NCBI GenBank assembly: GCA_042570305.1 | Contig: JBHPGP010000002.1 | Span: 4,024 to 68,023 of the forward strand | Origin: Candidatus Omnitrophota bacterium | GTDB taxonomy: Bacteria; Omnitrophota; Gorgyraeia; Gygaellales; JAHJCI01 | Direction of reading: 5' to 3' | Length of the DNA: 64,000 bases | Part shown: positions 1,480 to 63,177 of the stretch, in pieces | Position numbering within the stretch: the first letter of the stretch is position 1 | Layout of the letters: every line of letters starts with the position of its first letter | Made by a program: the position numbers and the translations under genes | Notes under the pieces: generated by a model | The model's database searches: none | What the model was told of the DNA's origin: nothing | What the model saw: the letters and a program-made list of their open reading frames with translations, nothing else

Positions 1480-1528
1480 TTGCTACATTCGGCAGGACGA
1501 TTTTGCAACACGTAATAGATAGAAAATC

Positions 1529-1940: not shown

Positions 1941-2071
1941 AATCAGCGACGCACATTCCCGAGCCGGGTGCAAAACCCGTTGGAGCTGTCGTTTCGGCAA
2001 CCCGGTGTGGTTCTTTTTTAAGAATCACTGCATCCGGCCCGGGAATGAGCGTTTCTTATCTGTTAAACCCA

Positions 2072-6386: not shown

Positions 6387-6403
6387 GGAAGGAGTAACCG
6401 GTA

Positions 6404-7114: not shown

Positions 7115-7749
7115 GCGGAAAACAAAAACGTATTGAGCTGGTGGTAGCCAGCAGGAATTACAAGAAGTTCAAGGAGATAAAGGAAATACTCCGGGAGTTC
7201 AAACTTAAAATAACCTCTTTGCGCGATTATCCCCAAGCGCCCCGTATTGTCGAGAATGGAAGGACCTTTGAAGAGAACGCTATAAAAAAGGCACGCCTGA
7301 TTGCGCGCTTTACCGGAAAGCTAACACTGGGAGAGGACTCCGGTCTTGAAGTCGCCGCCTTAGGAGGGAAGCCGGGAATTTATTCTTCGCGTTTTTCCGG
7401 CAGGGATAAAAATGATGTGAAGAATAATCTGAAGTTGCTCAGGTTGTTGGCAGACCTGCCGATCAAAGAAAGAAAGGCGCGCTATGTCTGTAGCGTTGCG
7501 CTATTTGATAAACACGGCTTGCTTGGGGTAACCGAAGGTTATTGCCAGGGGATAATCGCCTTCCAGTTGCGCGGTTCATCCGGTTTTGGCTACGACCCTT
7601 TATTTATCATTCCTAAATATAAGAAGACCTTTGCTCAGTTGGGTCCGCGGATTAAACACAAGATTAGTCATCGCTTTCGCGCTCTTTCCATGGCAAGGCA
7701 GATAATAAAGAAATATTCCGGCATTCCGAATGGGTTGACAAAGATATAG
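7111..7749 (+). CDS. rdgB: dITP/XTP pyrophosphatase (Ham1/RdgB)
   Basis: [18 protein letters not shown]...GEDSGLEV...SSRFSG...FGYDPLF. Follows the conserved rph-rdgB gene order. Confidence 0.85.
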
Positions 7750-7786: not shown

Positions 7787-8812
7787 ATGGAAAAACAGAA
7801 TAGAAACCATGCCCTGGTTGACTTGCTATTAGAAATAGACGCCCAGATGCATGCCTTTCAAGACATCGATCAATTAATCGCTTTTTTTGTCAATAAGATA
7901 GCTGAGATATTCAGGGCGGGAAGGGTCTCCTTTATGCTGCTGGATGAAACAAGGGGGGAGTTGTTTATTAAGGCTTCTCATGGGTTAGACTTTTCAGACG
8001 GTAAATCAATAATCAGATTGGGTGAGATGTTTGGTGGCTGGGTAGCCAAACAAGGCAAGCCTTTGCTGGTCAAAGACGTGGAAGCAGAATTCCCTGATTT
8101 AATCAAGAACAGGGTATTGCGTTGTAAGACTAAATCATTTATTATCGTTCCCGTAAAGGTACAAAAGGGAATATTCGGTATATTAAATATGACTGATAAA
8201 AAGGATTTAAGCATATTTACTGAAGAAGAATTAAATACGATTAATCTCTTTTGTCATTACTTTGCTCTGCATGTAGAGAACATCAGATTGTTGGAAAATA
8301 ACGCGAAAAACTCGACGATTGATGCCTTAACCGGGTTATTCAATCATCGCTATTTTCAGGACCAGCTGTTGGAAGAGATTTATCGCGCAGAGCGTTATCG
8401 GTGCCATTTGAGCCTGGCGATGTTAGATATTGATAATTTCTGTTGGTATAATCAGACCTACGGTTATTCTGCGGGAGATAGCGCCTTAAGTAAAATAGGA
8501 AAATTAATAAAAGAAAACACGCGCCGGGTGGATACATCTGTCCGTTATGGGCCGGAGGAATTTATGCTGATCTTGCCGAATACCCGGTTAAAACAGGCTA
8601 TTTTTGTCGGAGAGAAGATCAGGGAGACAGTCGGCTATTCTGTATTTGCCGAAGACAGGAGTACCTCGTTGGGAATGGCCAGGCTTACGGTAAGCATTGG
8701 CGTCGTCGAACATAAAGTTGGCGTAGATAAAGAAGAGTTGACTCGTAGAGTTGTAAGTGCCTTGCTGGAAGCAAAGCAAAAGGGCAAAAATCGCGTCTGC
8801 GTATTTAAATAA
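7787..8812 (+). CDS. GAF-domain diguanylate cyclase-like protein (GGDEF with GPEEF variant motif)
   Basis: N-terminal GAF-like region, then a GGDEF domain (ALTGLFNHRYF...DIDNF...GD...RYGPEEF). The signature reads GPEEF instead of GG(D/E)EF. Confidence 0.75.
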   Translation: MEKQNRNHALVDLLLEIDAQMHAFQDIDQLIAFFVNKIAEIFRAGRVSFMLLDETRGELFIKASHGLDFSDGKSIIRLGEMFGGWVAKQGKPLLVKDVEAEFPDLIKNRVLRCKTKSFIIVPVKVQKGIFGILNMTDKKDLSIFTEEELNTINLFCHYFALHVENIRLLENNAKNSTIDALTGLFNHRYFQDQLLEEIYRAERYRCHLSLAMLDIDNFCWYNQTYGYSAGDSALSKIGKLIKENTRRVDTSVRYGPEEFMLILPNTRLKQAIFVGEKIRETVGYSVFAEDRSTSLGMARLTVSIGVVEHKVGVDKEELTRRVVSALLEAKQKGKNRVCVFK

Positions 8813-49315: not shown

Positions 49316-49400
49316 TACCCCTTCTTAAGGGACACCCTTTTTGCTGTTCGAGGGACACCCTTTTAGCTAATCGGCAGGGTGTCCCTTGTAGGGTTTAATA
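49316..49400. repeat. REP-like palindromic elements (GGGACACCC core), three copies
   Basis: aagggacaccctt, gagggacacccttttagctaa and the inverted agggtgtccctt. The last two form a hairpin. Confidence 0.65.
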
Positions 49401-49931
49401 TATAACTTCAGGTTGGCTTAAAATACTAAAAGCATTATCTGAAAACATTCTCTCTTGCCAGCTACTCCATGAATAACCTCCAGGGGAAGAGGCCAAACTT
49501 GCCCTGACTGGATTTAATTCTATATATTTCAGGCAATCTATAAGATATTTGTCTTTCTGGATTACCATACTTTTGAATCTACCTTGCCATAAACGCCCCA
49601 CCTTATTATATTTATTGTTGAACCAGGAAGTATAAGTTTGAGTTAAGCCCTGCATTATTTTAGCAAGGTCATTAGTTTTTTTAATATCAATAATTAAATG
49701 GATATGATTAGGCATTAGGCAGTAAGCGTACAATTTAAATTTGTATCTGTTTTTGTAATGTTTACATATTTCCAAGTATTTTTCAAAATCTGCGCCTTCT
49801 ATAAAGATTTTTTGTTTTTGGTTACCACGATTGATAATATGGTAACAGGCATTTTCTAAAAGCATTCTTTTGGTTCTCGGCATATTTATCACCTCCTGCT
49901 TAAATAGACGAAGAAGAGCAGAATTTCTCAC
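49395..49931 (-). mobile_element. IS200/IS605-like Y1 (HuH) transposase, REP-associated tyrosine transposase (RAYT) type
   Basis: 178 aa with HuH motif (PNHIHLII) and a conserved N-terminal YHIINRGN block. Flanked on both sides by inverted GGGACACCC REP elements. The downstream copy ttagctaaaagggtgtccc is the exact reverse complement of the upstream gggacacccttttagctaa. Confidence 0.75.
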
Positions 49932-50062: not shown

Positions 50063-50674
50063 ATGAGTGAACGAGCATTTATCCAAAGGTGCCTTAAGCA
50101 TGAGAAGGCGGCCTGGGATGAATTCGTGGATAAGTATTCCCGCCTGATTTACAATTATATCTACAGCGTGTTTAAGATTAAGGGCTTGCGTTTTTCTGCC
50201 GATACGGTAAACGATCTTTTCCAAGAGATCTTCCTTAATTTGACCAAAGATAATTTCAAGAAATTACGTCAGTACAAAGGCAAAAACAACGCCAGTCTTG
50301 CCAGCTGGCTAAGGATCATTACCATAAATTTTTGCCTGGATTATGTAAAGAAAGAAGGAAAGCCAAACCTGTCTCTGGAAGAGAAGCTAAATGAGGAGGG
50401 TTTTTCTTTAAAGGATATCCTGGCTGACAATAACATGCAAGCCAGGGAATTGCTCAACAACCAGGAAAAGATACAGCTTCTTTCCGAGTGCATCGAAAGG
50501 CTAAGTAATGACGACAAATATTTTCTAGAAATGCATATTTATCAGGGGGTGAACCTAAGGGATTTACGGGTTAATCTGGGTATTTCCCGCAGTGCGGTGG
50601 ATATGCGCAAACTGCGACTGATTGAGAAGCTCAGGGATTGTTTCAGGGATAAGGGATTTCAGTTAGAATCTTAA
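50063..50674 (+). CDS. ECF-type RNA polymerase sigma factor (sigma-70 regions 2 and 4)
   Basis: Region 2 DLFQEIFLNLTKD...SWLRIITINFCLDY. Region 4 HTH LRDLRVNLGISRSAVDMRKLRLIEKLR. Confidence 0.8.
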   Translation: MSERAFIQRCLKHEKAAWDEFVDKYSRLIYNYIYSVFKIKGLRFSADTVNDLFQEIFLNLTKDNFKKLRQYKGKNNASLASWLRIITINFCLDYVKKEGKPNLSLEEKLNEEGFSLKDILADNNMQARELLNNQEKIQLLSECIERLSNDDKYFLEMHIYQGVNLRDLRVNLGISRSAVDMRKLRLIEKLRDCFRDKGFQLES

Positions 50675-50704
50675 GGTTCGCTCGTCTATTGTTATTGGGG
50701 AGTT

Positions 50705-51400
50705 ATGAGAAAAATTAAAGAGGTAATCAGGATGGTTTACGGATTCTATCGCAAAAGGCAAGACCGCGGGGACTCTCCCTGCCCGGACGAAGAAATGCTG
50801 GCTTGTTTTTCTGAGGGCAAGCTCTCAAAGAGCGAATCAAAAGAGATACAAGGACACCTTCTTTCCTGCAGCCGTTGCGCAGAAGTCGTTTCTTTATTGT
50901 ATCATCGACTTGGAGAGGAAAAGACCGTACCCGAATTTCTTATTCAGAATGCAAAGGGGCTGTTGGCCGGCAGTTCTCCTCCTAATATCCTTAAGGTTAT
51001 TTTGGCCTTGAAAGAAAAGGCGATACAGATTCTGAAAACTAGCGGGGATATTATTCTTGATAACGAGATAATGCCTTTGCCGGTTCTGCGCAGCCGAAAG
51101 ATAAGCGATTTTACCGAGGATGTAAAGCTGATTAAGAAATCAGGAGATTTAGAAATCAGCATGCTTATCCAAAAACAAGATAAGGATAGAGTAAGGCTCA
51201 ATTTGAACCTGCTGGATAAAGCGAGCCTTTTGCCTGCAGAAGGGTTGCGCCTCACGCTATTTAGAAACGGGGAGGAAACCGAATCCTATGAGGCTGTATT
51301 CGGTAAGGCAATGTTTGATAATCTCGGTATCGGCAGATATGTCATTGAAATATCGCGCCAACAAGATAAATTAGGGACGGTTGATTTGGAGATTAGATAA
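50705..51400 (+). CDS. Putative cytoplasmic anti-sigma factor (zf-HC2 zinc finger N-terminus)
   Basis: CPDEEMLACFSEGKLS...EIQGHLLSCSRCAEV matches the anti-sigma zinc-finger pattern (H..C..C). Immediately follows the ECF sigma gene. No TM helix. Confidence 0.55.
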   Translation: MRKIKEVIRMVYGFYRKRQDRGDSPCPDEEMLACFSEGKLSKSESKEIQGHLLSCSRCAEVVSLLYHRLGEEKTVPEFLIQNAKGLLAGSSPPNILKVILALKEKAIQILKTSGDIILDNEIMPLPVLRSRKISDFTEDVKLIKKSGDLEISMLIQKQDKDRVRLNLNLLDKASLLPAEGLRLTLFRNGEETESYEAVFGKAMFDNLGIGRYVIEISRQQDKLGTVDLEIR

Positions 51401-51402
51401 AC

Positions 51403-53601
51403 ATGCAAGCGCAGAATACCTGGATTCTGGAAATTACCTGCCAGAATAAGCAGCTGAGTATGAGCCTGTACGAAAAAGAGCAGGTTTCCACACTTAAAAC
51501 GATAAGTACCCTCTCTGTGGATTTTGCGAGGATAGGGCGTATAAATAATGAGATAATCGCAATTATAAATAAGGCCAATCAGAGAAGGCTGCCTGATGAT
51601 AATTCCATAGTCGAACTTCAAAAGAATACAAGGCTTCTTTATGAGCTTTTGCTTACGCGTCAGGTTAAGAACAGATTGTCTTCTCTGGGTTCAATAAATT
51701 TACTGCTTTCTCTTGATGAAAGGTTGATTACTCTTCCCTGGGAGCTGCTTTTTGACGGAAAAGATTTCCTCTGTCTCAAGTTTGATCTTGGGCGCAGCAT
51801 CCGTACACAGGCTTTCCCGCTTCAGCCGCAACGGCCTATTATTACAGGCAAGCCGAAGATGCTGATTCTGGTTAATCCTACTGGAGACTTGAGGTCTGCT
51901 TACCGTGAGGGTTTATATATTAAGGAACATTTGAGCAGAAATGATAATATCAGTGTAGATTTTAAATCTCAGGAAATCGATAGCGCTTATTTGTGCAAGA
52001 ACTTACATATTTACGATATCGTTCATTTTGCAGGGCATTGTGAATATGACACCCGTAATCCCGAAGAATCCGGCTGGGTATTGAGTGACGGAATTATCTG
52101 CGCCCGGGATTTTCTTGCTTTGGGTGAAAGCACAGGTTTGCCCAGCATAGTTTTTGTTAACGCCTGCGAATCAGCGCGCACAGCCAGTAATCTTATAAAT
52201 ACAGACATGCAGAACAATATCTACGGATTAGGACAGGCATTTTTATTTGTCGGCGCAAGGCATTATATAGGCAGTTACTGGAATATTGAAGACGGTGCAA
52301 GCCAAGAATTTGCCGAAGAGTTCTATAATCAAATTGCGTCTGGTTGTTCAGTTGGTCAGGCAATAAGGTTAGCACGGCTAAGGCTGTTTAAGCGTAAAGG
52401 CATCTCAACGATTGCCTGGGCAGGGTACGTGCTTTATGGAGACCCCGCGTTTGTTATGTTGTCTAGCGTTTCCAAATCAGCGTTGGCGAAGATGCGATTT
52501 GAGCCACGCATTCCAAAGATTACTAAAAGAAGGGCGGCTATACTTGGTTTGGTTTTGGCGGCCATTGCCTTTAGCTTTGCCCTGGTTAAGATTTTACCAG
52601 CATTTAATCCGCAAGCATCTTTCTTATACTCTCAGGCAGAAGAGCTCTATGCACAGGGGAAGAACTCTAAGGTAATTAGCTTGCTTAGCAGGATTATCTC
52701 TGGAGATTCTCAATACTTGCCTGCATGGAAGTTGCGAGGAGATATGTATTTCCGGTTAGGCAGGTTTTCTGACGCTTTGGCTGATTATTTTGATTATGCC
52801 CGTATTAGCGAGAAAAGCGGCCAGTATAAACATTTAGCTTCTGCTTACATCAAGATCGGCTGGATCTATCATATGTGCGGAGATTACCAAAAGAGCCAAG
52901 AATTTTATCAAAAAGCCTTCAATCTCAGCCGCAAGCATGAGGATAAACTCAATGAGGCTGATGCTATGGCGCGCCTGGCTGTCTGGCATATCGATAAGGG
53001 CGATAATGAAGCCGCCTTTTCTTTATTGATGAAGAGTTCCGAAATCAACCGGCAGAGAAGTAGCGATATCGAACACAGGTTTAATTTAGCCTGCGACTAT
53101 TTCAATATCGGTTTTCTTTATACAGAGAGAGACGATTATGCCGCTGCCAAGGAATTCTACAGGAAGAGTGAAGATATTTTTCAAGGTCTGGGCGAAATTC
53201 CCGAATTAAGCGACTACTACTTTAACATGGGAGAGATAGCGTTATTTGAAAAAAGATATGACTCAGCGTTGGAATTTTATCAAAAGGGTTTGGCTTTGGA
53301 CGAACAACTCGGACACAAATTTAATCTGAGTTCAGACTATTGGATGCTGGGTGAATTCTACTGGGAAACAGGCAAATTGAATCGCGCAGAGAGTTACTTT
53401 AAACAAGGCATCCTCGCCTGCCAGGAGATTAATAATTATCCGGTCTTAGCCGGGATTTACTATGACTTAGGTCTAATGTATAAAGAGATTGGTCAGAGTC
53501 AAAAGGCAAAGAATTTTCTCTCGCTTGCCCTTAAGCTCTACAAGAATATAGACACGCCGGATTACCAGGAAGTCCAGAAGGAATACCTTGCCTTGGAATA
53601 A
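51403..53601 (+). CDS. CHAT-domain (caspase-like) peptidase with one TM helix and C-terminal TPR repeats
   Basis: Caspase-like His/Cys dyad context: HFAGHCEYD...IVFVNACESAR. TM at RRAAILGLVLAAIAFSFALVKIL. At least 6 TPR-like repeats C-terminal. A 3-nt gap from the anti-sigma stop suggests an operon. Confidence 0.75.
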   Translation: MQAQNTWILEITCQNKQLSMSLYEKEQVSTLKTISTLSVDFARIGRINNEIIAIINKANQRRLPDDNSIVELQKNTRLLYELLLTRQVKNRLSSLGSINLLLSLDERLITLPWELLFDGKDFLCLKFDLGRSIRTQAFPLQPQRPIITGKPKMLILVNPTGDLRSAYREGLYIKEHLSRNDNISVDFKSQEIDSAYLCKNLHIYDIVHFAGHCEYDTRNPEESGWVLSDGIICARDFLALGESTGLPSIVFVNACESARTASNLINTDMQNNIYGLGQAFLFVGARHYIGSYWNIEDGASQEFAEEFYNQIASGCSVGQAIRLARLRLFKRKGISTIAWAGYVLYGDPAFVMLSSVSKSALAKMRFEPRIPKITKRRAAILGLVLAAIAFSFALVKILPAFNPQASFLYSQAEELYAQGKNSKVISLLSRIISGDSQYLPAWKLRGDMYFRLGRFSDALADYFDYARISEKSGQYKHLASAYIKIGWIYHMCGDYQKSQEFYQKAFNLSRKHEDKLNEADAMARLAVWHIDKGDNEAAFSLLMKSSEINRQRSSDIEHRFNLACDYFNIGFLYTERDDYAAAKEFYRKSEDIFQGLGEIPELSDYYFNMGEIALFEKRYDSALEFYQKGLALDEQLGHKFNLSSDYWMLGEFYWETGKLNRAESYFKQGILACQEINNYPVLAGIYYDLGLMYKEIGQSQKAKNFLSLALKLYKNIDTPDYQEVQKEYLALE

Positions 53602-53644: not shown

Positions 53645-53730
53645 TTGCGGTTTCCGTTGGGGACACCTTACCGATTGGCTCTGTACCAGGCTTCCGATTG
53701 GCAAAAAGGATGTCCCTTAAGAAGGGGTTG
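53645..53730. repeat. Degenerate REP-like pair (ggggacacc / ggatgtccc) plus ccgattggc direct repeat
   Basis: Imperfect inverted pair related to the GGGACACCC REP core, 50 bp apart. Directly followed by a TTGACA-16-TAGAAT promoter (53728-53755). Confidence 0.35.
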
Positions 53731-53755
53731 ACAGGGATTTTTTATTGCGTAGAAT
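53728..53755 (+). promoter_or_regulatory. Sigma70-type promoter upstream of secreted paralog A
   Basis: ttgaca gggattttttattgcg tagaat. Confidence 0.45.
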
Positions 53756-53818: not shown

Positions 53819-54379
53819 ATGCGTAATGTTCTTATTTTTACAGGGCTGTTTTTAGTCCTGGCAGCAGGTATCTGTCTTGCCCAGGAGGAAGTTACCATCA
53901 CTACCTATTATCCCTCGCCTCACGGCGTGTATGATGAGCTGGAATCAAACAAGGCAGCGGTAGGTGATACCAATGGAGACGGGCAGTTAACTTCTGCTGA
54001 CCTGCCTCCTGAGGACGGACAGCTGCATACTGCAAGGAGCGTTATCTTTGAGCCGCAAACTAGCTTGGCTACAATACAGGCCATGCTTAACCCACAGCAA
54101 GGCGAGTTGGCTTATGCCGCCTCAGAAGACGAGTGGTACTACTACAACGGTGCCGGCTGGACAACACAAGCAGGGGGAGGCAAGGCAGTGATTTCTGTAA
54201 AATGCGGATGGTATACCGTGGGTGGTGCGCATAGTTGTGTTCCTCCCACTTGTCCAGCTGGTTGGACTCCATTGGCACCAGGAGCTACTAGTTGTGCAGA
54301 TATGGGCTCGGCTTATAATTCAAGTGCTAACCAACTGTGGTATGTTGGTTATTGCGAGCGCTGGTGTCAGGAACCGTAA
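53819..54379 (+). CDS. Secreted protein, paralog A: conserved N-terminal domain with EF-hand/dockerin-like loop plus Cys-rich variable C-terminus
   Basis: Signal peptide, then QEEVTITTYYPSPHGVYDELESNKAAVGDTNGDGQLTSADLPPEDGQ..., then a 7-Cys C-terminal region. RBS acggaggtg identical to that of paralog B. Confidence 0.6.
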   Translation: MRNVLIFTGLFLVLAAGICLAQEEVTITTYYPSPHGVYDELESNKAAVGDTNGDGQLTSADLPPEDGQLHTARSVIFEPQTSLATIQAMLNPQQGELAYAASEDEWYYYNGAGWTTQAGGGKAVISVKCGWYTVGGAHSCVPPTCPAGWTPLAPGATSCADMGSAYNSSANQLWYVGYCERWCQEP

Positions 54380-54409
54380 ATTTTTTAGTTGACTAACGGA
54401 GGTGCACAG

Positions 54410-54988
54410 ATGCGTAAGGTTTTTGTTTTTACTGGCCTGTTTCTATTACTGGGAGTAAGTATTGCTTTTGCCCAGGAGGAAGTCACTATTACCACCTATT
54501 ACCCTTCACCCCATGGAGTATATGATGAACTGGAGTCCAACAAGGCAGCGGTAGGTGATACCAATGGCGATGGGCAGCTGACTCAAGCTGATCTGCCTCC
54601 TGAGGATGGACAAATGCACACAGCAAGGAGCGTTATCTTTGAGCCACACGCAGATAAGGCAACTATAGATGCTCTACTTAATCCACAATCAGGCGAGTTA
54701 GCATATGCTGCTGCAGAAGACCAATGGTACTACTATAATGGCGCTCTCTGGACAACACAGGCAGGAGGGGGGAGTTCTTACTATTATACCTATTGTCAGT
54801 GGTTTTGGGCATGTACGGTTGCTGGTGGTTGTGGTGGTAATTTAACGTGTACGCCTCCAAATTGTGATGCTGCAGATACCCCTATTAGCACGGGGTGCGT
54901 ATTTAATGGAGGGTACATTGGTAGTTACGGGGGTACAGAGCGTATGGGCTATGGCGGTCATTGCGTAAGAACCTGCCGCGGAAGTTGA
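54410..54988 (+). CDS. Secreted protein, paralog B (tandem duplicate; divergent 10-Cys C-terminus)
   Basis: N-terminal ~125 aa are about 85% identical to paralog A, then unrelated Gly/Cys/Tyr-rich C-terminus. True start is the ATG at 54410. Confidence 0.6.
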   Translation: MRKVFVFTGLFLLLGVSIAFAQEEVTITTYYPSPHGVYDELESNKAAVGDTNGDGQLTQADLPPEDGQMHTARSVIFEPHADKATIDALLNPQSGELAYAAAEDQWYYYNGALWTTQAGGGSSYYYTYCQWFWACTVAGGCGGNLTCTPPNCDAADTPISTGCVFNGGYIGSYGGTERMGYGGHCVRTCRGS

Positions 54989-55044
54989 TTATTATAAAAA
55001 AAGATTTCCAGACTTTTTCATTAATATTGGATATTGGTTCTCAT

Positions 55045-55821
55045 ATGCGGCTGCTGATTTTTGTTTTTTTCTTTCTCAGTTCTACTCTTAGTTGTTTTGC
55101 CTATGATATTCAACCTTATTCAGAAGAGCAGCTTGATAAAACTAAAGCTGCTCTTAATCTTGTCTTCTATGCTTTGAATTATCCGGAAGAACAGGATTCC
55201 TCCGAAGACATTGATGTCATTTTAGAGAGCCTGAAGAAAACCAAGCCATTTGACGAATTCAATAATTTTGCCATCTGGTATGCAAATCTACCCAAAGAAG
55301 AAAAAAACAGCATCTTTAAGTCGACCCCAGGGTTTCCTCCCCTTAAGGTTCGCCAGGATTTTTTAGACTACATTTCCGAACGCCTTAAGTCAAACTACAA
55401 ACTAATCATCATTGATTATTCTGGTTCTCTTTCCTGCGCTGAGTTATCCTCGATAGACAAGCTGTCTTTAATTATCTTAGGCAGGAAGAGGTACACAAGC
55501 AGCGGTAGTTTTGCCAAGGGCTTTTTACATGAATTAGGTCATTCGCTCGGCCTTAGAGAAGAATGTGTTCGTTGTAATCAACTCTGTGCTCCCGGACCGC
55601 CGAATTGCGCTACCACACAAGAAGACGCTCAAGAGTGGTGGGGCGATTTAGCCAAAAATTACTCGCGGGTAAGATTTATTAACGGCTGTTGCGGAAACAA
55701 AGATTATATCCGTCCTACCATTGCTTCGCTGATGAATAATACTGACAAGGCAGGAGATTTTGGCCCGGTAAATGAGAGATTCTTAAGAGAAGAATTAGGA
55801 TTGTCAACTCCCGATAAGTAA
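55045..55821 (+). CDS. Secreted HExxH zinc-metallopeptidase-like protein with Cys-rich C-terminal region
   Basis: Signal peptide MRLLIFVFFFLSSTLSCFA. HELGHSLGL zincin-type motif. CVRCNQLC...NGCCGN cysteine cluster. Confidence 0.45.
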   Translation: MRLLIFVFFFLSSTLSCFAYDIQPYSEEQLDKTKAALNLVFYALNYPEEQDSSEDIDVILESLKKTKPFDEFNNFAIWYANLPKEEKNSIFKSTPGFPPLKVRQDFLDYISERLKSNYKLIIIDYSGSLSCAELSSIDKLSLIILGRKRYTSSGSFAKGFLHELGHSLGLREECVRCNQLCAPGPPNCATTQEDAQEWWGDLAKNYSRVRFINGCCGNKDYIRPTIASLMNNTDKAGDFGPVNERFLREELGLSTPDK

Positions 55822-56005
55822 CCTCGCTTTTTCTATCAGTTCTTTTTGTCCCCGCCTTTTCTTTAAAACAATCAACTCCGAGAATCCCAAAAAATCCTAG
55901 TGAGATTTTGCCTTTCCTTTCGTCTATTTAAGCGAGGACATAAGTTATGGAGCATAAGCGAACATAACTTATTTGTCGGGGCTCATTGTAGAAAGGAGGG
56001 GCGAA

Positions 56006-57553
56006 ATGAAAAACTTATTAATCATAATCATGGCGGCAGGGCTATGTTTTCTGGGTGGGGTATTTTTTCCCGAAGCATACGGGGAAAATTCTCAGGAGAT
56101 GTTTTGGGATAACATCGGCAAGGAGATAGTTGAAGTAAATACTGTTTGGGTGGATAGCCAGAATCCTAAAGTAATTATAATAGGGGCTAATCGGGGAGTA
56201 TTTAAGACCAAAGATGGAGGCGATTCCTGGCAGGTAGTATTAATCGGCACTAACAAAAGGGTAAATTTTTTATACGCGGACAGACAGAACAACAATTTAA
56301 TCTACGTCGGCACAAGCAGCGGATTGTTTCTCAGCCGCAATCAGTGTAAAACCTGGAAGCGAATCTATCAGAATAACTCTGAAGAGGAAGTTAACTGTTT
56401 AGGTATAATAGAACCGGAAAAGAGAATAGTTTATTTAGGCACACAGGCAGGTTTAATAATCAGCCAAGACAATGGCAGGACCTGGAGCAGATTCAGCGGA
56501 AGTTTGGGCAAGTTGCCTATCCTGGCAATTACAGAAGACAGAATAGGCAGATTTATTTATCTGGTTACTTCTGCTGGGGCCTATCAAATTGACCAGCTGG
56601 GAGGAGCAAAGAGGATTTTTGCCACTCCGTTTGCTGATTCGCAGGATAATGATTCTTACTCGAATACAGGCCAAGACACAGAGTCAGAGGAAACCGATTC
56701 CGATGACGGAGGATTATCCAGGATAAATTATATTAGCATTGATCCAGTTAATCCCCAAAATGTATATTTAGCCACTGACCAGGGTGTGTTTATGAGCAGT
56801 AATAAGGGTATTTCTTGGAGCAAACTTTCGTGTTCCGGATTGCTGAAGAAAGAGGTAGACTTTATTGCTATTACAGCAAATTCGCTTGTATTGGCAGGGA
56901 CCAGGTCAGGCATATTTGCTTATAATCAGGAAGTATGGCAGGAGGTGTCTTTAAGATTAACTATGCGGGATATTCGCTTTCTTGCGCTTGATAATTCGGG
57001 CACAATCTATGCTGCGGGGGATAAGGGCCTGTTTAAAGGCAGGCAGTTACTTAAGAGCAATGCTTGTTTTCCAAAGGAGGCTGACCAAGAGCCTCCGATT
57101 CAGAGAATCCAGCAGGCGGCGATAGAATACGCTCAGGTAATTGCTCCTCGGCAGATTGCCGCTCACCGAAGATTAGCCCGCCTTAAGGCAATATTGCCAG
57201 ACCTAAGCTTAGATTACGATAAGAGTATTACTTCGTATAATAATTCTACTTGCACGAGGTTTTCTGTTGGCCCGCTGGATTGGGGAGTTTCCCTTAAATG
57301 GAGTCTGGGCGATTTAATCTGGAGCGAGCAGCAGAGGCTGATCGATTCCCAGGTCAGGTTGATGGTTAAGCTGCGGCAGGATATTCTGGATGAAGTAACG
57401 CGTTTGTACTTCCAACGTCAGAGGCTCAAGGCAGAGCTCAATTCTGCGGAATTAGCATTTAACAAAAGGCAGGAAAAGGAGTTGAGGTTCAAGGAGCTTA
57501 CTGCCTTGCTTGATGGCCTTACAGGGGGATTGTTTTCAGAAGGGATTAAATAG
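56006..57553 (+). CDS. BNR/Asp-box repeat beta-propeller protein (secreted) with C-terminal coiled coil
   Basis: Signal peptide. Repeated SxDxGxTW-type Asp boxes (TKDGGDSWQ, SQDNGRTWS, SNKGISWSK, RNQCKTWKR). Confidence 0.6.
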   Translation: MKNLLIIIMAAGLCFLGGVFFPEAYGENSQEMFWDNIGKEIVEVNTVWVDSQNPKVIIIGANRGVFKTKDGGDSWQVVLIGTNKRVNFLYADRQNNNLIYVGTSSGLFLSRNQCKTWKRIYQNNSEEEVNCLGIIEPEKRIVYLGTQAGLIISQDNGRTWSRFSGSLGKLPILAITEDRIGRFIYLVTSAGAYQIDQLGGAKRIFATPFADSQDNDSYSNTGQDTESEETDSDDGGLSRINYISIDPVNPQNVYLATDQGVFMSSNKGISWSKLSCSGLLKKEVDFIAITANSLVLAGTRSGIFAYNQEVWQEVSLRLTMRDIRFLALDNSGTIYAAGDKGLFKGRQLLKSNACFPKEADQEPPIQRIQQAAIEYAQVIAPRQIAAHRRLARLKAILPDLSLDYDKSITSYNNSTCTRFSVGPLDWGVSLKWSLGDLIWSEQQRLIDSQVRLMVKLRQDILDEVTRLYFQRQRLKAELNSAELAFNKRQEKELRFKELTALLDGLTGGLFSEGIK

Positions 57554-57670: not shown

Positions 57671-57699
57671 TTGACAGAATAAATATTTGTTTTTATACT
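57671..57699 (+). promoter_or_regulatory. Sigma70-type promoter (TTGACA-17-TATACT)
   Basis: ttgaca gaataaatatttgtttt tatact, upstream of the wHTH gene. Confidence 0.55.
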
Positions 57700-57726: not shown

Positions 57727-57936
57727 TTGATAACCAAAATTGGAATTGTTGCGGGAGAGATTTGGCATTTCCTTGACCAGCGTAACCAAGTGTCCCTGTC
57801 TGAATTACTGAAGAACATAGAGCAACCCCGGGATATGATTCTGATGAGCCTGGGTTGGCTGGCTCGCGAAGGCCACGTGGTTCTGCGTGTCCTTGAAGAT
57901 GACCATATAATATCGCTAAGAAGAGGGAACCGTTAA
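57727..57936 (+). CDS. Winged helix-turn-helix protein (DUF2582-like)
   Basis: IGIVAGEIWHFLDQRNQVSLSELLKNI......LGWLAREGHVVL matches the DUF2582 wHTH pattern (AG.VW..L...G..S..EL......AIGWLAREGKI). TTG start with RBS agagaggtgagag. Confidence 0.5.
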   Translation: MITKIGIVAGEIWHFLDQRNQVSLSELLKNIEQPRDMILMSLGWLAREGHVVLRVLEDDHIISLRRGNR

Positions 57937-57939
57937 GAT

Positions 57940-58317
57940 ATGAATTCCAGGGGCATAACTTTGGTTATACTAATATCGTTTATTATGGCTGTGGTAGTAA
58001 TTGCCAATATTGCTTTAGTTCTCATGTCCAACCAAGGTCGGTTTGGCCATCTTCAGGTCAGCCGTATCCAGGCTCATTATGCAGCTCTGGCAGGTATAAA
58101 TTACGCGCTGGAGAGGTTAAGGGTGAATGATGCTAACTGGCCCATACCGGATTCCAGTTCTCCGTACTCTCACGATCTCTGCAGGGGGTGTATTTCTCCT
58201 GATATTAATGAGCCTGATCTTCCCGATTCAATTGTTGATGTTACAATTTCGGTTTCTGATTCTGATGACGACGGCATTGTGGAAATCAGCGCCACGGCTG
58301 ACTACACCTATAATTAA
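57940..58317 (+). CDS. Pseudopilin-like protein (GspK/PilX-like N-terminal hydrophobic segment, lacks E5)
   Basis: MNSRGITLVILISFIMAVVVIANIALVL resembles minor pseudopilin N-termini. Upstream of the pil cluster. Confidence 0.35.
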   Translation: MNSRGITLVILISFIMAVVVIANIALVLMSNQGRFGHLQVSRIQAHYAALAGINYALERLRVNDANWPIPDSSSPYSHDLCRGCISPDINEPDLPDSIVDVTISVSDSDDDGIVEISATADYTYN

Positions 58318-58478
58318 ATCCAACCCGCGTTTCCTTCCAAATAGCCCAAATTACAAACAGTTATAAAATTTTATCATCTGAGTAAAAATAAGTAATTGTA
58401 AGTAAATCTGCTTGATTAAGCATATCGACGAGATTCTCGCCTTTCTTTAAGCTATAGCAATCCGTATGTAAAAAATGC

Positions 58479-58516
58479 TTGACAAATCTAAAAAAGATGT
58501 TTTACTGGTATATAAT
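58479..58516 (+). promoter_or_regulatory. Promoter with extended -10 (TGgTATATAAT) and an upstream TTGACA
   Basis: TTGACA at 58479. The TATAAT at 58511 lies 26 nt downstream of the TTGACA, which is too far for a -35, so the extended -10 probably drives the promoter. Confidence 0.4.
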
Positions 58517-58554
58517 ATGAAATAAGGTAATCCAAGTAAATCTAAGTAAATACA

Positions 58555-58740
58555 ATGTCATTGAACAGGTTAATGGATGTTGATGAACTGGCCGATTATT
58601 TAAGGCTCAAGCGCCAGACTATCTATAACTGGCTTAACCAGAATAAGATCTCCGGCATAAAGATTGGCGGGGTCTGGCGGTTTAACAAGCGGGATATCGA
58701 CAAGTGGTTAAAAAGCAAGCAGAGAAAAAACACAGGTTAA
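58555..58740 (+). CDS. HTH DNA-binding protein (excisionase/MerR-like HTH_17 family), copy 1
   Basis: MDVDELADYLRLKRQTIYNWLNQNKISGIKIGGVWRFNKRDIDKWL, a typical helix-turn-helix_17 pattern. 61 aa. Confidence 0.55.
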   Translation: MSLNRLMDVDELADYLRLKRQTIYNWLNQNKISGIKIGGVWRFNKRDIDKWLKSKQRKNTG

Positions 58741-58889
58741 TGGATGTTGATGAACTGGCCGATTATTTAAGGCTCAAGCGCCAGACTATCTATAACTGGC
58801 TTAACCAGAATAAGATCTCCGGCATAAAGATTGGCGGGGTCTGGCGGTTTAACAAGCGGGATATCGACAAGTGGTTAAAAAGCAAGCAG
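58565..58889 (+). repeat. Perfect tandem duplication (2 x ~158 bp, period 167 bp) covering the HTH gene
   Basis: 58565-58722 is identical to 58732-58889 as read by eye. The 9-bp junction agaaaaaac separates the copies. Confidence 0.8.
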
Positions 58890-58895
58890 CGTTAG
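58740..58895 (+). CDS. HTH DNA-binding protein, copy 2 (identical core, different C-terminal 2 aa)
   Basis: The ATG overlaps the copy-1 stop (TAATG). Encodes MDVDELADY...KSKQR. The track ORF at 58704 is the same frame read from an upstream in-frame ATG (58704) that lies inside copy 1. Confidence 0.5.
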   Translation: MDVDELADYLRLKRQTIYNWLNQNKISGIKIGGVWRFNKRDIDKWLKSKQR

Positions 58896-58904
58896 GAGAA
58901 ACGG

Positions 58905-60425
58905 ATGTCTGAATTTGGCATATATTTTGGTACCGAAGTCATCAGTATAGCAGAATTCAAAGGAAGGAAAGAGGCTGCGCGCTTTTTCTCCGTGCCAAAG
59001 ACAGGGCTCCTCAAGTCTACGCCGGAAGAGAAAGAGGCCAAAGGATCAAAATTGGCATCTATCTTAAAAGAGGCGTTTGCGAAAAACAGCATTGCCCCAA
59101 ATAATGTCAATATTGCACTTTCCGGAGAAAACCTGATTATACGCACCTTTGATTTGCCGGTCTTCTTATCCAGGCAGGAGTTGGAATATCCTGCCATTGC
59201 CTTTGAAGCCAAGAAATACATCCCCTTTAAAATAGAAGAGATTGTATTTGATTTCCGTCTTCTTCCTGACAAAAAAAATAAGAAAATCCTGGTATTGTTC
59301 GCCGGCATAAAAAACGAAACCCTGCGCAGGTACTTTGCCCTTTTTGAAGAACTGGGGATTAAGATAAGGTTGATCGAATACTCCGGCTTTAGCATCTTAC
59401 GGCTTTTAGACTTGAGCAGATTTAAATATAAGGGCGTCCTCGGATTGCTCAGTCTGGACTTTCAGGAAGAGACGAACTTCATAGTTTGCCAGGACGGCTT
59501 CCCGCTGTTTACACGCGATATAACCTTAACCTCAAAATCTCAAGGAGAGGATAAGGCAGACCTGATAAAAGGATTAAAAAGCGAAATCCGAATTTCCCTG
59601 GATTACTTCCGGCGTAAATTCCCCACCAAGTCCCTGCAGAATCTAGTTATTCTCAGTCCGCCAGAATTTCACGCAGAGATAGGCACACTGACCAAAGATT
59701 TAGGTTTATCGGCAGCGCCTTTAGAAATATCCAAGTTTTTAGGCAATCAGATAAAGTTTAGCAGTGCGTTGTTGAGGTCCTACTCCACAGCCGTAAGCCG
59801 TACTCAGAAACTCCGTTTTCCAATTAACCTCCTGAAACCGGCAATGAAAAAAGAGGAAGTCAAAGGGTTATCGATTCAGGCAATCCCGGCATTAATGAAA
59901 ATGATAAAGATAAACCCGAAAGTAGCGCTAATTGCGTTTTTGATTATAGCTGTCACGGCGGGATGGGGATTCAGCAGGATACTGCCCTTGGAAAACACCT
60001 TAAAGATTGCCAGGTCTAACCAGCCGGTAATACAAGGAATTTCCGCAGGGGGTAATTTGAAGTTTCTTGAGCAAACCGAGGCTGAATATACCGGCAAGAT
60101 GAAGGTTATGAAAGAGATACTGGGCAGCAGGTTTTATTTGACCGAAGCCTTCGATATTATTCCTTATCTTATGCCGCAAGGCGCCTGGTTGGATGCAATC
60201 TCTTTTAAGGCCCAGGAGAATGCTCTCGAATTAAAGCTTGAGGGAGTGGTTTTTCTCCGAAATTCAAATAAAGAATTTGAAGCGGTTAATGATTTTATCC
60301 TGGCATTAAAGAAAGATTCCAAGTTTAGCCGGAATTTCAGAGAAATAAATGTGTTTTCCATGGAGAGGGTCGCGTTTAAAAAATTAGATTCAGAAGTTAC
60401 TAAATTTAAGCTCTTATGTCGTTAA
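58905..60425 (+). CDS. pilM: Type IV pilus assembly PilM-like ATPase-fold protein fused to a PilN-like TM/periplasmic domain
   Basis: N-terminal actin-like/PilM region (~340 aa). TM VALIAFLIIAVTAGWGF, then a ~150-aa PilN-like periplasmic domain. Sits upstream of pilO/pilP/secretin. Confidence 0.5.
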   Translation: MSEFGIYFGTEVISIAEFKGRKEAARFFSVPKTGLLKSTPEEKEAKGSKLASILKEAFAKNSIAPNNVNIALSGENLIIRTFDLPVFLSRQELEYPAIAFEAKKYIPFKIEEIVFDFRLLPDKKNKKILVLFAGIKNETLRRYFALFEELGIKIRLIEYSGFSILRLLDLSRFKYKGVLGLLSLDFQEETNFIVCQDGFPLFTRDITLTSKSQGEDKADLIKGLKSEIRISLDYFRRKFPTKSLQNLVILSPPEFHAEIGTLTKDLGLSAAPLEISKFLGNQIKFSSALLRSYSTAVSRTQKLRFPINLLKPAMKKEEVKGLSIQAIPALMKMIKINPKVALIAFLIIAVTAGWGFSRILPLENTLKIARSNQPVIQGISAGGNLKFLEQTEAEYTGKMKVMKEILGSRFYLTEAFDIIPYLMPQGAWLDAISFKAQENALELKLEGVVFLRNSNKEFEAVNDFILALKKDSKFSRNFREINVFSMERVAFKKLDSEVTKFKLLCR

Positions 60426-60970
60426 CAGAATTAATCAAAGCAAAGAAGGTCGGCCCCAACCAGATTGTGAGCCTTGCGCTCTTGGCCTTGGCTTGTCTGA
60501 TCGCGATAAATATCTATCAGAAGCAGAGTAAGAAAATTACCCAGGTTGAACAGCTTTATCAAGAGCAGAATAAGAAGAACGCGGTATTGCTGCGCATCGG
60601 AGACATAATGGCAGGCATCAAGGTTTATCAGGAGCGTTTACAATCCCAAGACATAAGGCAGATTATTAATAAGATTACGGATATAGCACGTTCCAGCAAA
60701 ATAGATATTACTGCCATAAAGCCTCAAGCGCAGACCAGCCAAAGTAAAAGCAAAATATACGATAAGACCTTTTTTGAAGTTTCCTTAAGCGCCGATGGGT
60801 ATCATGAATTAGGCGAGTTTATCAGCAGGTTGGAAAATGATCCGATTGTATTCGTAGTCGAATCCCTCACCTTAAACAGGGGGACAGATCTCAATCAAAT
60901 TCAATCGGATACAACGGAAGTGAAGTTAAAGGCGAGATTAATTATCAGCCAGCTGTTTTTTATTGATTGA
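60416..60970 (+). CDS. PilO-like pilus assembly protein
   Basis: N-terminal TM, coiled coil, C-terminal ferredoxin-like region. Position between pilM/N and pilP. Confidence 0.4.
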   Translation: MSLTELIKAKKVGPNQIVSLALLALACLIAINIYQKQSKKITQVEQLYQEQNKKNAVLLRIGDIMAGIKVYQERLQSQDIRQIINKITDIARSSKIDITAIKPQAQTSQSKSKIYDKTFFEVSLSADGYHELGEFISRLENDPIVFVVESLTLNRGTDLNQIQSDTTEVKLKARLIISQLFFID

Positions 60971-61527
60971 TGGTTAGAGAGATGAAATACCAGGTTATTG
61001 CTGAATTTCGGCCCGCTATCATCGCATTATCGTGTTTGTCGATACTGCTGGGATTTTCTTTAGCCGGATTTTCGCAGAGCGATGACGGCCTAGTGCCGCA
61101 ACCTCCCGGAAAGCAAAAAGTAAATGCAAGAGGAAAGCCCATAGAGGAAAATAGCGTCGACTACACCGCCTCCGGACTCAGGGACCCCTTTTACTCTCCA
61201 CTCTTTGCTCCTGTGGAGAAAGCAAAGCCTGCGCCTATGTCTATGTCGGAAGGAATGCCAGTAGAAGTAGTAATTCCCCGCAAGATCTCAGAAATGTTTT
61301 CATTTTCAATCCAGGGGATAATCTGGAATTCTAATAATCCAATCGTGATTATCAATAATCAGGTATTAAGAAAAGGAGATACCCTGATAGTGACTACAGG
61401 CAAGGGTGCAACCGAGGAAGTTACCGTTGAAGATATTGTTAAAGACGGTGTGACCATAGGTTATGCCGGGCTGAGCGAAAAATTCGCTCTCTCCGGTATT
61501 GCCCGGATTTCGGGTATTAGAAAATAA
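60967..61527 (+). CDS. PilP-like lipoprotein/periplasmic protein
   Basis: Signal sequence. C-terminal beta-rich domain IQGIIWNSNNPIVIINNQVLRKGDTL typical of PilP/GspC-type secretin-binding domains. Confidence 0.4.
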   Translation: MMVREMKYQVIAEFRPAIIALSCLSILLGFSLAGFSQSDDGLVPQPPGKQKVNARGKPIEENSVDYTASGLRDPFYSPLFAPVEKAKPAPMSMSEGMPVEVVIPRKISEMFSFSIQGIIWNSNNPIVIINNQVLRKGDTLIVTTGKGATEEVTVEDIVKDGVTIGYAGLSEKFALSGIARISGIRK

Positions 61528-61596
61528 AGAATAAGCAAAGACGATGTTTTCATCAGGATAAAAACATACAGGCCTGAATATCCAAAGGAGGAAGAA

Positions 61597-63177
61597 ATGA
61601 AAAATTTTAAAATCCGCATCGCAATCATGAAATTTAATTTTTTAGTTCTGCTTTTTGCTCTTGGGTTTTTTATTTCTTGCGCCTATGCCCAAGAAAGCCA
61701 GGAAGGTGCTCAGGGGCCTTCTGGTTCTCCCCAGTTGATTTCAATGGATTTTAAGGATGCCGGCCTTAAAGACGTGCTTAAGGCGCTTTCCATTCAGTCA
61801 GGGGTAAACTTCATTGCCTCCCAGGAAATTGAGGACCGCACGGTGACCCTATACCTTGACGGGGTTTCTGCAAAGGAAGCCATGGATAAATTATTTAAGG
61901 CCAGTAAGTTAGAATATGAGTATTATGAAGAGGACAAAATCGCCCTTATAAAAAAGGCAGAGCCCATAGTCGAAACAATGACTAAAGTTTTTCCGCTTAA
62001 ATACGCGCATGTTTCCAGTTCATCCATAGAGAAAGACCTGGGAGAGGGGGATCTGGAGGAGCTTACGAAAAAGATCAGCTCAGGGCAAGGCTCAGGAGAG
62101 CAGCTGGCGGGAATAAGCACAGTAGTGCAGGAATTGCTTTCAGCGCAGGGTAAACTAAACGAAGACCCGCGCACCAACAGCCTGATTATTACCGACCTGC
62201 CTAACCGCTTTCCGATAATTGAGAAAACCATAAAAGAATTGGATATTGCCGTGCCCCAGGTTATGTTAGAAGTCGAAATACTGGATGTGAGTAAGGACAT
62301 AGTTGATAAGCTCGGATTTAATTTTGAAAGCGACGGTTTCGGTGAGAATCCCCTTACCGTGATACTGCCCGGAGACTTCGTGCAAAAGGATGCCAGGTTC
62401 TTTATGGGGAACAAGAGCCTGTATGGAGTAAAAAAACTGGCGACGGCAGGAAGCGGTTCGATGATTTTCGGGAATACTTTCGCAGGGGTTTTGGACTTGC
62501 TGCGTACTCAGAAAGATACGAGATATTTAGCCCGCCCGCGCATACTCACCTTGAGCAACGAGATAGCAGAGATCAATATTACTTCCAATATAGTGATGCA
62601 GGTTAAAAAGGAATATCAATACGATGATTCTGGTAACGTTACGGAGGTGACCTGGACTCCTGAGAGAAGCGATGCGGTAGGCAGGAGAAAAGACCCGGGA
62701 ATAACGCTTAAGGTTATACCGGTGATAAACAGCGATAATATGGTGACCATGCGAATAGAGCCGGCGATAAGGACTATTACCTCTTCGACAATAGTGGCAG
62801 ATCTGGAGTCGGAGGTCGGCAGGTATTACGACCTGGATGAACGAACTACCAAAACTACGGTCAAGGTTAGCGACGGAGAGACCGTGATTGTGGGTGGGCT
62901 CATCCATAAAGACAGAAGCGTAGAATTAAACAAAGTGCCCATTTTGGGAGATATTCCGATTATCGGCGCTTTATTCAGGCATAAGAACAAGGACAAAGAT
63001 ATCGAACGGGAATTGCTCGTATTTATTACTCCGCGCATAGTGGAGAATGACTCTGCCAGATGGGCAGGGGATAACGGTATGGATTTATTTTCGGATGCGC
63101 AAGCTTTTGCCCCGGAGGAGGCTCGCTTGTCTGCGATAGAGGATGCTCTCGACAGCTTCAGGGACGAACGCTATTAA
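61597..63177 (+). CDS. pilQ: Secretin (PilQ/GspD family outer-membrane channel)
   Basis: Signal peptide, N-domains, and the conserved C-terminal secretin block VPILGDIPIIGALFRHKNKDKDIERELLVFITPRIV. Confidence 0.8.
   Translation: MKNFKIRIAIMKFNFLVLLFALGFFISCAYAQESQEGAQGPSGSPQLISMDFKDAGLKDVLKALSIQSGVNFIASQEIEDRTVTLYLDGVSAKEAMDKLFKASKLEYEYYEEDKIALIKKAEPIVETMTKVFPLKYAHVSSSSIEKDLGEGDLEELTKKISSGQGSGEQLAGISTVVQELLSAQGKLNEDPRTNSLIITDLPNRFPIIEKTIKELDIAVPQVMLEVEILDVSKDIVDKLGFNFESDGFGENPLTVILPGDFVQKDARFFMGNKSLYGVKKLATAGSGSMIFGNTFAGVLDLLRTQKDTRYLARPRILTLSNEIAEINITSNIVMQVKKEYQYDDSGNVTEVTWTPERSDAVGRRKDPGITLKVIPVINSDNMVTMRIEPAIRTITSSTIVADLESEVGRYYDLDERTTKTTVKVSDGETVIVGGLIHKDRSVELNKVPILGDIPIIGALFRHKNKDKDIERELLVFITPRIVENDSARWAGDNGMDLFSDAQAFAPEEARLSAIEDALDSFRDERY

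Follow-up and report, generated by a model that had tools for sequence, protein, structure and literature searches.

What do two small tandem genes with almost the same front half and different ends do next to a gene for a secreted peptidase? We ask this question for a locus of four genes at positions 53819–57553 of a 64-kb stretch of DNA (referred to as the window throughout) from a metagenome-assembled genome (MAG) of Candidatus Omnitrophota. The first two genes are paralogs encoding a signal-peptide-like segment, a conserved N-terminal part and a cysteine-rich C-terminal domain, which we call the tip. The third gene encodes a metallopeptidase of the metzincin type. We consider it probable that the paralogs are short secreted or surface fibre-like binding proteins of an Omnitrophota-specific family, with two fixed tip specificities, working together with the co-secreted metzincin. 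Coordinates are collected in Table 1; related loci and proteins are cited by their L and P numbers.

The two paralogs start in the same way. An 18-nt ribosome-binding-site context, AACGGAGGTGCACAGATG, is identical at both starts, and both proteins begin with a basic n-region followed by a hydrophobic core (Kyte–Doolittle mean over 12 residues of 2.7–2.9). Small residues are found at positions −3 and −1 before Q22 on direct reading, C-L-A in one paralog and A-F-A in the other, and in more than 100 relatives the mature motif begins 4–5 residues past the predicted cleavage point. The shared start context and the signal peptides had already been noted in a preliminary description of this DNA, and both observations hold. 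The same description put the identity of the N-terminal domains at about 85%, with mostly synonymous differences. Residues 1–121 indeed align without a gap at 83% identity, and mature residues 22–121 at 88%; the DNA of this part is just 79% identical. Because synonymous divergence is high (dS of about 1.5) and the ratio of nonsynonymous to synonymous divergence is low (dN/dS = 0.058; Nei–Gojobori estimates), the sequences indicate that the duplication is old and that the N-terminal part is under strong purifying selection. It is neither a recent copy nor a conversion tract.

Two elements stand out in the conserved part. The first is a module covering residues 22–48, which is almost invariant in more than 110 open reading frames (ORFs) of 140–640 aa from Omnitrophota loci. 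The second is a loop described earlier as resembling EF-hand and dockerin motifs, and this likeness is borne out. D50-T-N-G-D-G-Q-L-T-S-A-D61 satisfies the loop pattern D-x-[DN]-x-[DN]-G-x-[ILV]-x-x-x-[DE], both paralogs read DTNGDGQLTxAD, and D50, L57 and D61 are invariant among relatives. In larger relatives the Pfam family Dockerin_1 matches the homologous loops (7.9e-7 in L034; 0.0077 over residues 49–70 in L027). We regard the loop as putatively of the calcium-binding type.

The C-terminal parts had been thought to be unrelated. They are not. The tips alone align at E = 4e-7 in BLASTP (32% identity over 50 aa), and three cysteines (C8, C24 and C62 in tip numbering) are invariant in both tips and in the wider tip family, which includes the tips of L001, L120 and L121 that are diversified by retroelements (see below). 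Given this alignment and the common cysteine framework, the two tips are, by sequence, homologous to each other and to the retroelement-targeted tips. The cysteine counts of 7 and 10 given earlier also have to be revised, since the tips hold six and eight, and one further cysteine of paralog 1 lies in its signal peptide. Relatives carry further variants, which the preliminary description had suggested looking for: there are about 4000 clusters with differing C-termini, and the tips fall into several exchangeable types. Types A1 (...HPVAVGRSVRVCVK) and B (...FFRPPGGGC..GEAYVCSQ) are targeted by retroelements, type A2 (...GYCERWC..) includes paralog 1 and shares its invariant cysteine positions with A1, and a fourth type among the relatives is DUF1566/C-type-lectin-like.

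A constant N-terminal part, a variable C-terminal part and tandem copies would also fit polymorphic toxins with swapped toxic C-termini, and toxins and bacteriocin-like peptides were among the readings first offered for this locus. We find this hardly credible. Scans against Pfam, NCBIfam and PHROGs returned no toxin domain, no immunity-like small gene follows either copy (the next genes are paralog 2 and the metzincin gene), and no export or processing transporter was found. Moreover, the tips are disulfide-rich modules of 60–80 aa on one framework and are targets of retroelements in relatives. The core of the earlier idea, a constant base with swapped cysteine-rich tips, stands, and among its candidate functions we favour the adhesin tip over the toxin, the bacteriocin and the pilus tip (for the latter see below).

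The paralogs belong to a very large family. A word-indexed homolog search gave 14 relatives, which understates the family: an exhaustive profile search for the N-terminal module (N-module) gave 4037 protein clusters at E ≤ 1e-3, or 941 when the threshold is tightened to 1e-10. A genome scan for the module returned 250 loci, of which 79 were kept, nearly all labelled as Omnitrophota MAGs. The hidden Markov model of the N-domain matches the window paralogs at 5e-51 and 4e-50 and the L001 protein at 2e-53, and a third family member (P0012) lies on another contig of the same MAG. A signal peptide followed by TITTYYPSPxGxYxxL..VGDxNxDG heads all of the more than 110 ORFs mentioned above, which frequently stand in tandem arrays and have very different C-terminal parts. 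A literature search found no paper on the TITTYYPSP motif. Scans of the paralogs themselves against Pfam, NCBIfam and PHROGs gave sub-threshold matches only (DUF2793, Tail_spike_N, PBCV1_P7). Larger proteins with the N-module match Gp34_trimer (1e-18 and 3e-15), Peptidase_S74 (1e-11 to 2e-14) and Dockerin_1 (8e-7). Going by sequences and models, a cellular tail-fibre-like family seems to have its shortest representatives in the window proteins, which would consist of an anchor module, a trimerisation unit, a glycine linker and a tip.

The AlphaFold2 (AF2) monomer model of paralog 1 reaches a mean predicted local distance difference test score (pLDDT) of 71.7 and a predicted template modelling score (pTM) of 0.34. 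The N-terminal motif is unfolded in it (pLDDT below 50 for residues 26–46), and residues 67–76 are highly conserved yet unstructured. Residues of about 81–120 and the all-beta tip (pLDDT 70–89) are reasonably confident. Foldseek found no significant match to the whole chain in PDB or BFVD. The beta-hairpin (residues of about 85–120) locally matches the trimerisation domain of collagen XV/XVIII (probability 0.85, root-mean-square deviation 2.2–2.3 Å, E of about 1) and structure 5w6f of the phage CBA120 tailspike TSP3 (E of about 1), hits that are not significant alone. Weak Pfam matches to DUF2793 and Tail_spike_N cover the same region. Judging from the model, the hairpin is probably a trimerisation element. 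The tip matched no known fold in PDB and BFVD; a C-type lectin match was found neither in Pfam nor among the listed Foldseek PDB matches of this moderate-quality model, none of which reaches E ≤ 1e-3.

The hairpin also occurs outside short proteins. Five very large proteins contain 7–12 copies each of GELxY..YxYNGxxW (profile positions of about 89–130): P0190 (1046 aa), P0247 (1699 aa), P0262 (2484 aa), P0268 (906 aa) and P0275 (5641 aa). The putative trimerisation hairpin is therefore a repeat unit there too.

Diversity-generating retroelements (DGRs) are known to diversify ligand-binding proteins, acting on the binding surfaces of stable proteins. A second metagenome scan, anchored on the metzincin, gave 73 loci. 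Reverse transcriptase (RT) or Avd genes of DGRs are present in 19 of these 73, and wherever the N-module gene is on the contig they lie between it and the metzincin gene. The clearest arrangement is that of L001. Here, the family gene ends in 33 codons (2688–2787) that recur 314 nt downstream (3002–3101), and all 11 mismatches fall on adenines of the downstream copy, within AAC codons. This downstream copy, the template repeat (TR), is followed by Avd (phrog_3206, 1e-30). The RT of a sister locus matches phrog_1423 at 4e-126, and the RTs of L010 and L033 have the motif IGNLTSQ.

We searched for pairs of TR and variable region (VR) with a gapped, adenine-bias scan, which tolerates the 3-nt indels that a gap-free scan misses. 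Such pairs occur in nine distinct loci: L001, L033 (identical to L105), L095, L099, L114, L120, L121, L143 and L156. Besides L001 (11/11), mismatches are adenine-specific in L033 (13/14), L099 (15/17), L156 (14/15) and L143 (11/12), among others. Whenever the VR falls within an ORF with the TITTYYPSP motif (TITT gene), it forms the 3′ end of this gene; the VR of L143 sits at the beginning of its contig, and no TITT ORF was called there. Most of the nine loci also carry Avd and/or RT next to the gene, and three have type-A tips homologous to those of the window. Because a retroelement rewrites the same tip in related genomes, we read the tip there, by analogy with known DGR targets, as a variable ligand-binding module. 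Our literature search found no paper on DGRs in Omnitrophota, nor any that describes a metzincin as the partner of a DGR target. These targets are probably included, as unnamed clusters, in large DGR surveys.

The elements themselves vary in state. L031 has a candidate TR/VR pair with five mismatches, four of them at T, outside any family gene. The L001 cassette (1448–7598) lies between a HigB/HigA-like toxin–antitoxin pair and genes for Phage_rep_O, HTH_17 and an integrase, and may ride on a mobile island; its RT has shrunk to a fragment of 110 aa, yet the VR/TR pair seems to have been active recently. L016 has a TR/VR pair (6902–7060 versus 7810–7956) with indels of 9 nt and 4 nt beside a truncated RT (232 aa). 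By appearance this is a decaying DGR, perhaps on its way to the RT-free state of the window.

The window itself has no DGR. Searches of the 64 kb with phmmer, using the RTs of L010 and L033 and two Avd proteins, found neither RT nor Avd, and no template repeat or other repeat of either tip occurs in these 64 kb. Where relatives carry TR, Avd and RT, paralog 2 and the metzincin gene are separated by a gap of about 56 nt. In the segments equivalent to the VR (54290–54376 in paralog 1, 54880–54985 in paralog 2), codons often end in A or G (ATG, TCG, GCA, CAA, CTG, TGG; GTA, GGA, GGG, ACA, GAG), in contrast to the NNC codons in the true VR of L001. By their codons, the window tips do not look templated, since adenine mutagenesis from AAY templates cannot yield A or G at the third codon position. 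When the metzincins are placed in a tree, DGR-bearing loci are spread over the crown clade that holds the window, and deep branches are without DGR. A loss in the lineage of the window and a gain elsewhere are both possible. The window appears to hold a fixed, retroelement-free, duplicated member of the family.

One could also argue that a retroelement elsewhere in the genome diversifies the paralogs in trans, so that they would be active DGR targets. This argument is in keeping with the nine related loci in which a TR/VR pair is directed at the 3′ end of the TITT gene (type-A tips occur in three of these loci), with the interspersion of DGR-bearing loci with the window metzincin in the tree and with the third family member on another contig; the DNA inspected here is the 64-kb window. 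Nevertheless, we think that it is very unlikely. No TR-like repeat, RT or Avd is present within these 64 kb, the gap that holds them in relatives is short, and the variable segments are rich in codons ending in A or G. The best 120 of 7436 RT homologs include none with the ACFL1D tag of this genome, a result that is inconclusive for the window genome.

The peptidase gene next to the paralogs is real, as stated in the preliminary description. At E ≤ 1e-3, at least 226 homologs of its product are found. Those listed (120) are 53–66% identical to it, and the named ones come from Omnitrophota. H162, E163, H166, G169 and E173 are invariant among 34 homologs. At position 172, at least 90% of the homologs have Asp, and the window protein has Glu. 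The zinc motif, HELGHSLGLR(D/E)E, falls in a predicted helix (153–167). Nearer the C-terminus an A-S-L-M-N stretch, with S228 invariant and M230 present in at least 90%, is a candidate Met-turn by position only.

The AF2 model of this protein (pLDDT 81.5, pTM 0.79) has a metzincin fold. Its top 17 Foldseek matches in PDB are all M64 peptidases (E 3.6e-6 to 1.2e-4, probability 1.0), among them 3p1v, 9qdi/4df9 (BF3526) and the T. ramosa IgA peptidase (TMq 0.52–0.61), and its significant matches are to M64/igalysin peptidases only. A profile search against PDB finds IgA protease at E 0.004. The window protein has no Pfam match at E ≤ 0.1, so that PF09471 is not reached; this family is a precomputed Pfam hit for 6 of the 120 listed homologs. 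The igalysin family motif is HExxHxxxGxxD, with an extra residue before the glycine (PMC12237041), which would place the glycine at +8 from the first histidine. In the window protein it is at +7, the canonical HExxHxxGxxD spacing. Because the igalysin-defining residue is absent, we call the protein an M64-like metzincin, going by its model, and not a proven member of M64.

How firmly is the metzincin tied to the paralogs? A homolog stands beside the N-module gene in 13 of the first 85 loci, and in the metzincin-anchored scan a TITT gene adjoins it in 23 of the 24 loci with at least 3 kb of upstream sequence. The small TITTYYPSP protein and the metzincin form a conserved Omnitrophota gene pair in which the partner is almost obligatory. 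As the metzincin is a real peptidase-type protein and a near-obligatory genomic partner, a functional link is plausible. Processing, the maturation role first proposed for the peptidase, is one possible form of it.

If processing were the whole story, the locus would be a cassette in which the metzincin cleaves small precursors, for example at a conserved stretch without structure (ARSVIFxPQ) or in the glycine linker, and frees a disulfide-rich C-terminal peptide that serves as a signal, a toxin or a bacteriocin-like agent. A small, rapidly diverging protein beside a zincin gene is a known layout (the FxSxx-COOH type; PMC7159879). The near-obligatory pairing, the conserved but unstructured residues 67–76 and the small, cysteine-rich tips would suit such a cassette as well. 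We hold it to be unlikely for the following reasons. First, the N-terminal part is too conserved (dN/dS as given above) and recurs too broadly among large tail-fibre-like proteins for a mere leader, and it has a probable trimerisation unit. Second, DGRs are known for diversifying the binding surfaces of stable proteins. Third, no export or processing ABC transporter and no immunity gene is conserved nearby.

Peptidase genes are also found in unusual contexts among the related loci. A DGR RT and the metzincin share a single ORF in L120 (2691–4487), L118 (1–1257), L121 (6557–7774) and L113 (467–1357), and gene calls combining RVT_1 with metzincin (596–598 aa and 405 aa) underlie proteins P0287, P0288 and P0019. 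They may be genuine fusions or have arisen by the loss of stop codons, and they are odd, since the metzincin otherwise carries a signal peptide. In L007 (2699–2962; also L086, 5350–5613) the middle part of a mini-fibre N-domain continues, within one ORF of 87 aa, into roughly the last 20 residues of the metzincin (…DKAEDFGPLNERYLRKALQV). With an intact pair beside it, it looks like the deletion remnant of an older fibre–metzincin pair.

For the fibre-like reading that we prefer, the following sequence of events can be envisaged. The paralogs would be exported by the Sec route and lose their signal peptides. The tip would fold oxidatively into a small, disulfide-rich ligand-binding domain, and the chain would trimerise via the beta-hairpin unit, from which the glycine linker leads to the tip. 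The invariant N-module with its putative calcium loop would most likely dock each paralog to a shared surface or assembly partner. The tip would then bind its ligand. In related genomes a DGR rewrites its last 30 or so codons; in the window genome two diverged tandem copies would supply two specificities in place of the DGR. The metzincin would act outside the cytoplasm, either on the target bound by the tip or on the fibre itself.

Several points weigh against this scenario. Trimerisation is suggested by fold matches at E of about 1, and the whole-chain model is weak, with a low pTM. The N-terminal motif is unfolded in the monomer model, which makes its role a guess. The tip resembles no known fold, so that its description as ligand-binding leans on the comparison with DGR targets. 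The search for a DGR covered the 64-kb window, and one acting in trans from elsewhere is conceivable. The larger N-module proteins have no link to a peptidase, and the pairing of the metzincin with the small-tip subfamily may have another reason. Finally, the role given to the peptidase comes from gene pairing, and none of our results indicates a substrate.

Table 1. Features of the locus, in coordinates of the window.
Feature	Position	Strand	Length or residues	Remarks
Locus of four genes	53819–57553	+		Candidatus Omnitrophota MAG; NCBI tags ACFL1D_00705, ACFL1D_00710, ACFL1D_00715
Sigma-70-type promoter-like site	53728–53755	+		TTGACA-16 nt-TAGAAT; 11/12 in consensus scan, pattern match only; upstream of paralog 1
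Paralog 1	53819–54379	+	186 aa	Identical to NCBI hypothetical protein ACFL1D_00705; tip subtype A2 (...GYCERWC...)
Signal-peptide-like segment, paralog 1	53819–53881	+	aa 1–21	Predicted cleavage CLA/QEE
N-terminal module, paralog 1	53882–53962	+	aa 22–48	QEEVTITTYYPSPHGVYDELESNKAAV
Putative EF-hand/dockerin-type calcium-loop motif, paralog 1	53966–54001	+	aa 50–61	DTNGDGQLTSAD
Beta-hairpin unit, paralog 1	54083–54169	+	aa 89–117	GELAY..WYYYNGxxW; pLDDT 83–87
Tip domain, paralog 1	54182–54376	+	aa 122–186	6 Cys
Paralog 2	54410–54988	+	192 aa	Same architecture as paralog 1; identical to NCBI hypothetical protein ACFL1D_00710
Tip domain, paralog 2	54773–54985	+	aa 122–192	8 Cys
Metzincin-type zinc metallopeptidase	55045–55821	+	258 aa	Bears a signal peptide; AF2 fold and HExxH motif
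Zinc-binding motif	55528–55563	+	H162, E163, H166, G169, E172, E173	HELGHSLGLREE
BNR/Asp-box beta-propeller protein	56006–57553	+	515 aa	Predicted secreted; helical C-terminal region

The fourth gene of the locus is real too, and its product matches Sortilin-Vps10 (6.8e-12), PSII_BNR (1.1e-7) and BNR in Pfam, and F510_1955-like in NCBIfam (3e-23, below cutoff). It had been counted with the cluster, and the cluster had been linked to a sigma/anti-sigma/CHAT operon upstream (50063–53601), which encodes a sigma factor of the extracytoplasmic function (ECF) type, a zf-HC2 anti-sigma factor and a 732-aa CHAT protease–TPR protein (CHAT 7.5e-34). We rejected the propeller, the CHAT–TPR protein, the ECF sigma factor and the anti-sigma factor as parts of the system, as none of them has a homolog in the 165 related loci. 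Neither the link nor a regulation by this operon is borne out, and paralog 1 is preceded by a promoter-like match of its own (Table 1). Just upstream of the operon, two 23-nt direct repeats (AGGGACACCC...; 49328–49373) lie beside an IS200-like Y1 transposase gene on the minus strand (49395–49931; Y1_Tnp 2.6e-20).

Downstream of the locus lies a cluster resembling those of type IV pili or type II secretion systems (T2SS; 57727–63177, with an 11/12 promoter match at 57671–57699). It contains genes for a DUF2582 winged-helix protein, a pseudopilin-like protein of 125 aa, PilM-like (506 aa) and PilO-like proteins, a 186-aa protein and a GspD/PilQ secretin. Could the paralogs be pilin-like or pilus-tip subunits of this system (57940–63177, 3 kb downstream)? 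The nearby PilM, PilO, secretin and pseudopilin-like genes invite the thought, L031, L059 and L060 have secretin genes less than 10 kb from the N-module gene, and a secretin is a conceivable export route for folded, disulfide-bonded proteins. This pilus-tip reading, also raised in the preliminary description, is highly improbable in our view. The paralogs have no prepilin motif (G|F/M-x-x-x-E), their signal peptides look ordinary, and no pilin family of Pfam or NCBIfam matches them. Pilus genes are not conserved neighbours, as hardly any of the 160 or more other loci has them, and the fold hints are to trimers of the tail-fibre type, not to pilins.

Within the same region a perfect 158-nt tandem direct repeat (58565–58722 and 58732–58889, spacing 167 nt) gives rise to two near-identical HTH_17 (excisionase/MerR-like) ORFs (58555–58740 and 58704–58895), either by duplication or as an assembly artefact. 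Far upstream, a 2929-aa ORF (12535–21324) combines GT2, glucoamylase-like, GH94 supersandwich (6e-170) and GH94 catalytic (3e-124) domains and is, by its domains, a giant enzyme like cyclic beta-1,2-glucan synthase.

What does the locus mean for its host? Ultra-small and uncultured, the Omnitrophota are suspected of living on other cells. The locus is part of a toolkit of secreted fibre-like proteins that spans the phylum, with one N-module in common and exchangeable tips. One of its branches is tied to a conserved metzincin and, repeatedly, to DGRs. If confirmed, the locus would offer a concrete candidate for host or prey recognition in Omnitrophota, possibly a new protein scaffold for DGR hypervariation, and, as far as our literature search shows, the first case of a conserved protease that partners a family of DGR targets. 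The window alone is more modest, a duplicated family member free of retroelements. A bolder version would take the tip as a new, minimal hypervariation scaffold that is not a C-type lectin, and fibre and metzincin together as a retargetable protease, here with two hard-wired specificities. In that case, a diversifiable trimeric subunit would steer a conserved secreted peptidase to changing targets such as surface molecules of hosts or prey. We regard this version as doubtful.

Several known systems can be compared with the locus. M64/igalysins (T. ramosa IgA peptidase, BF3526, BACOVA_00663; PMC12237041) are the best fold matches of the HExxH protein. The homologs share with them the usual Asp as third zinc ligand, followed by an invariant Glu, and Cys residues placed for a structural metal site. 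They differ in the canonical spacing of the motif; the window protein differs further in its Glu at the third ligand position and in being a single domain of 240 aa, without lectin, wrapping or beta domains and without a match to PF09471. The systems of a small FxSxx-COOH-type protein and a zincin (PMC7159879) likewise pair a rapidly diverging small protein with a zincin-like metallopeptidase. In Omnitrophota, in contrast, the N-terminal part is conserved and fibre-like and the C-terminal part is variable, both proteins have signal peptides, and there is no tie to the NTPase conflict systems of that study.

DGR variable proteins such as Mtd of the Bordetella phage and TvpA of Treponema also have a constant N-terminal part and a C-terminal part that binds the ligand, with a variable region in its last 30–40 codons or so, and nine relatives of the window genes have an adenine-specific TR, most with Avd and/or RT. 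The window copies, unlike these, are without TR, Avd and RT in 64 kb, and their codons are not of the templated type. The Omnitrophota tip (60–80 aa, all-beta in the model, disulfide-rich) has no detectable C-type lectin signature, and the family has a conserved metzincin gene partner.

In domain layout, the family also resembles the mosaic adhesive trimer (MAT) fibres of Bdellovibrio (PMC10769870). The window proteins are far shorter (about 165 aa when mature), lack S74 and have an N-module of different sequence, and neither metzincin pairing nor DGR targeting has been reported for MATs. Both families, in turn, are secreted, tail-fibre-like and cellular, not phage-borne. In both, the signal peptide leads straight into a conserved domain; behind it come trimeric fibre elements, which are putative in the window proteins, and swappable tips, with S74 in some members. 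Their hosts, too, are alike in being small bacteria that prey on, or are suspected of depending on, other cells (PMC10066038).

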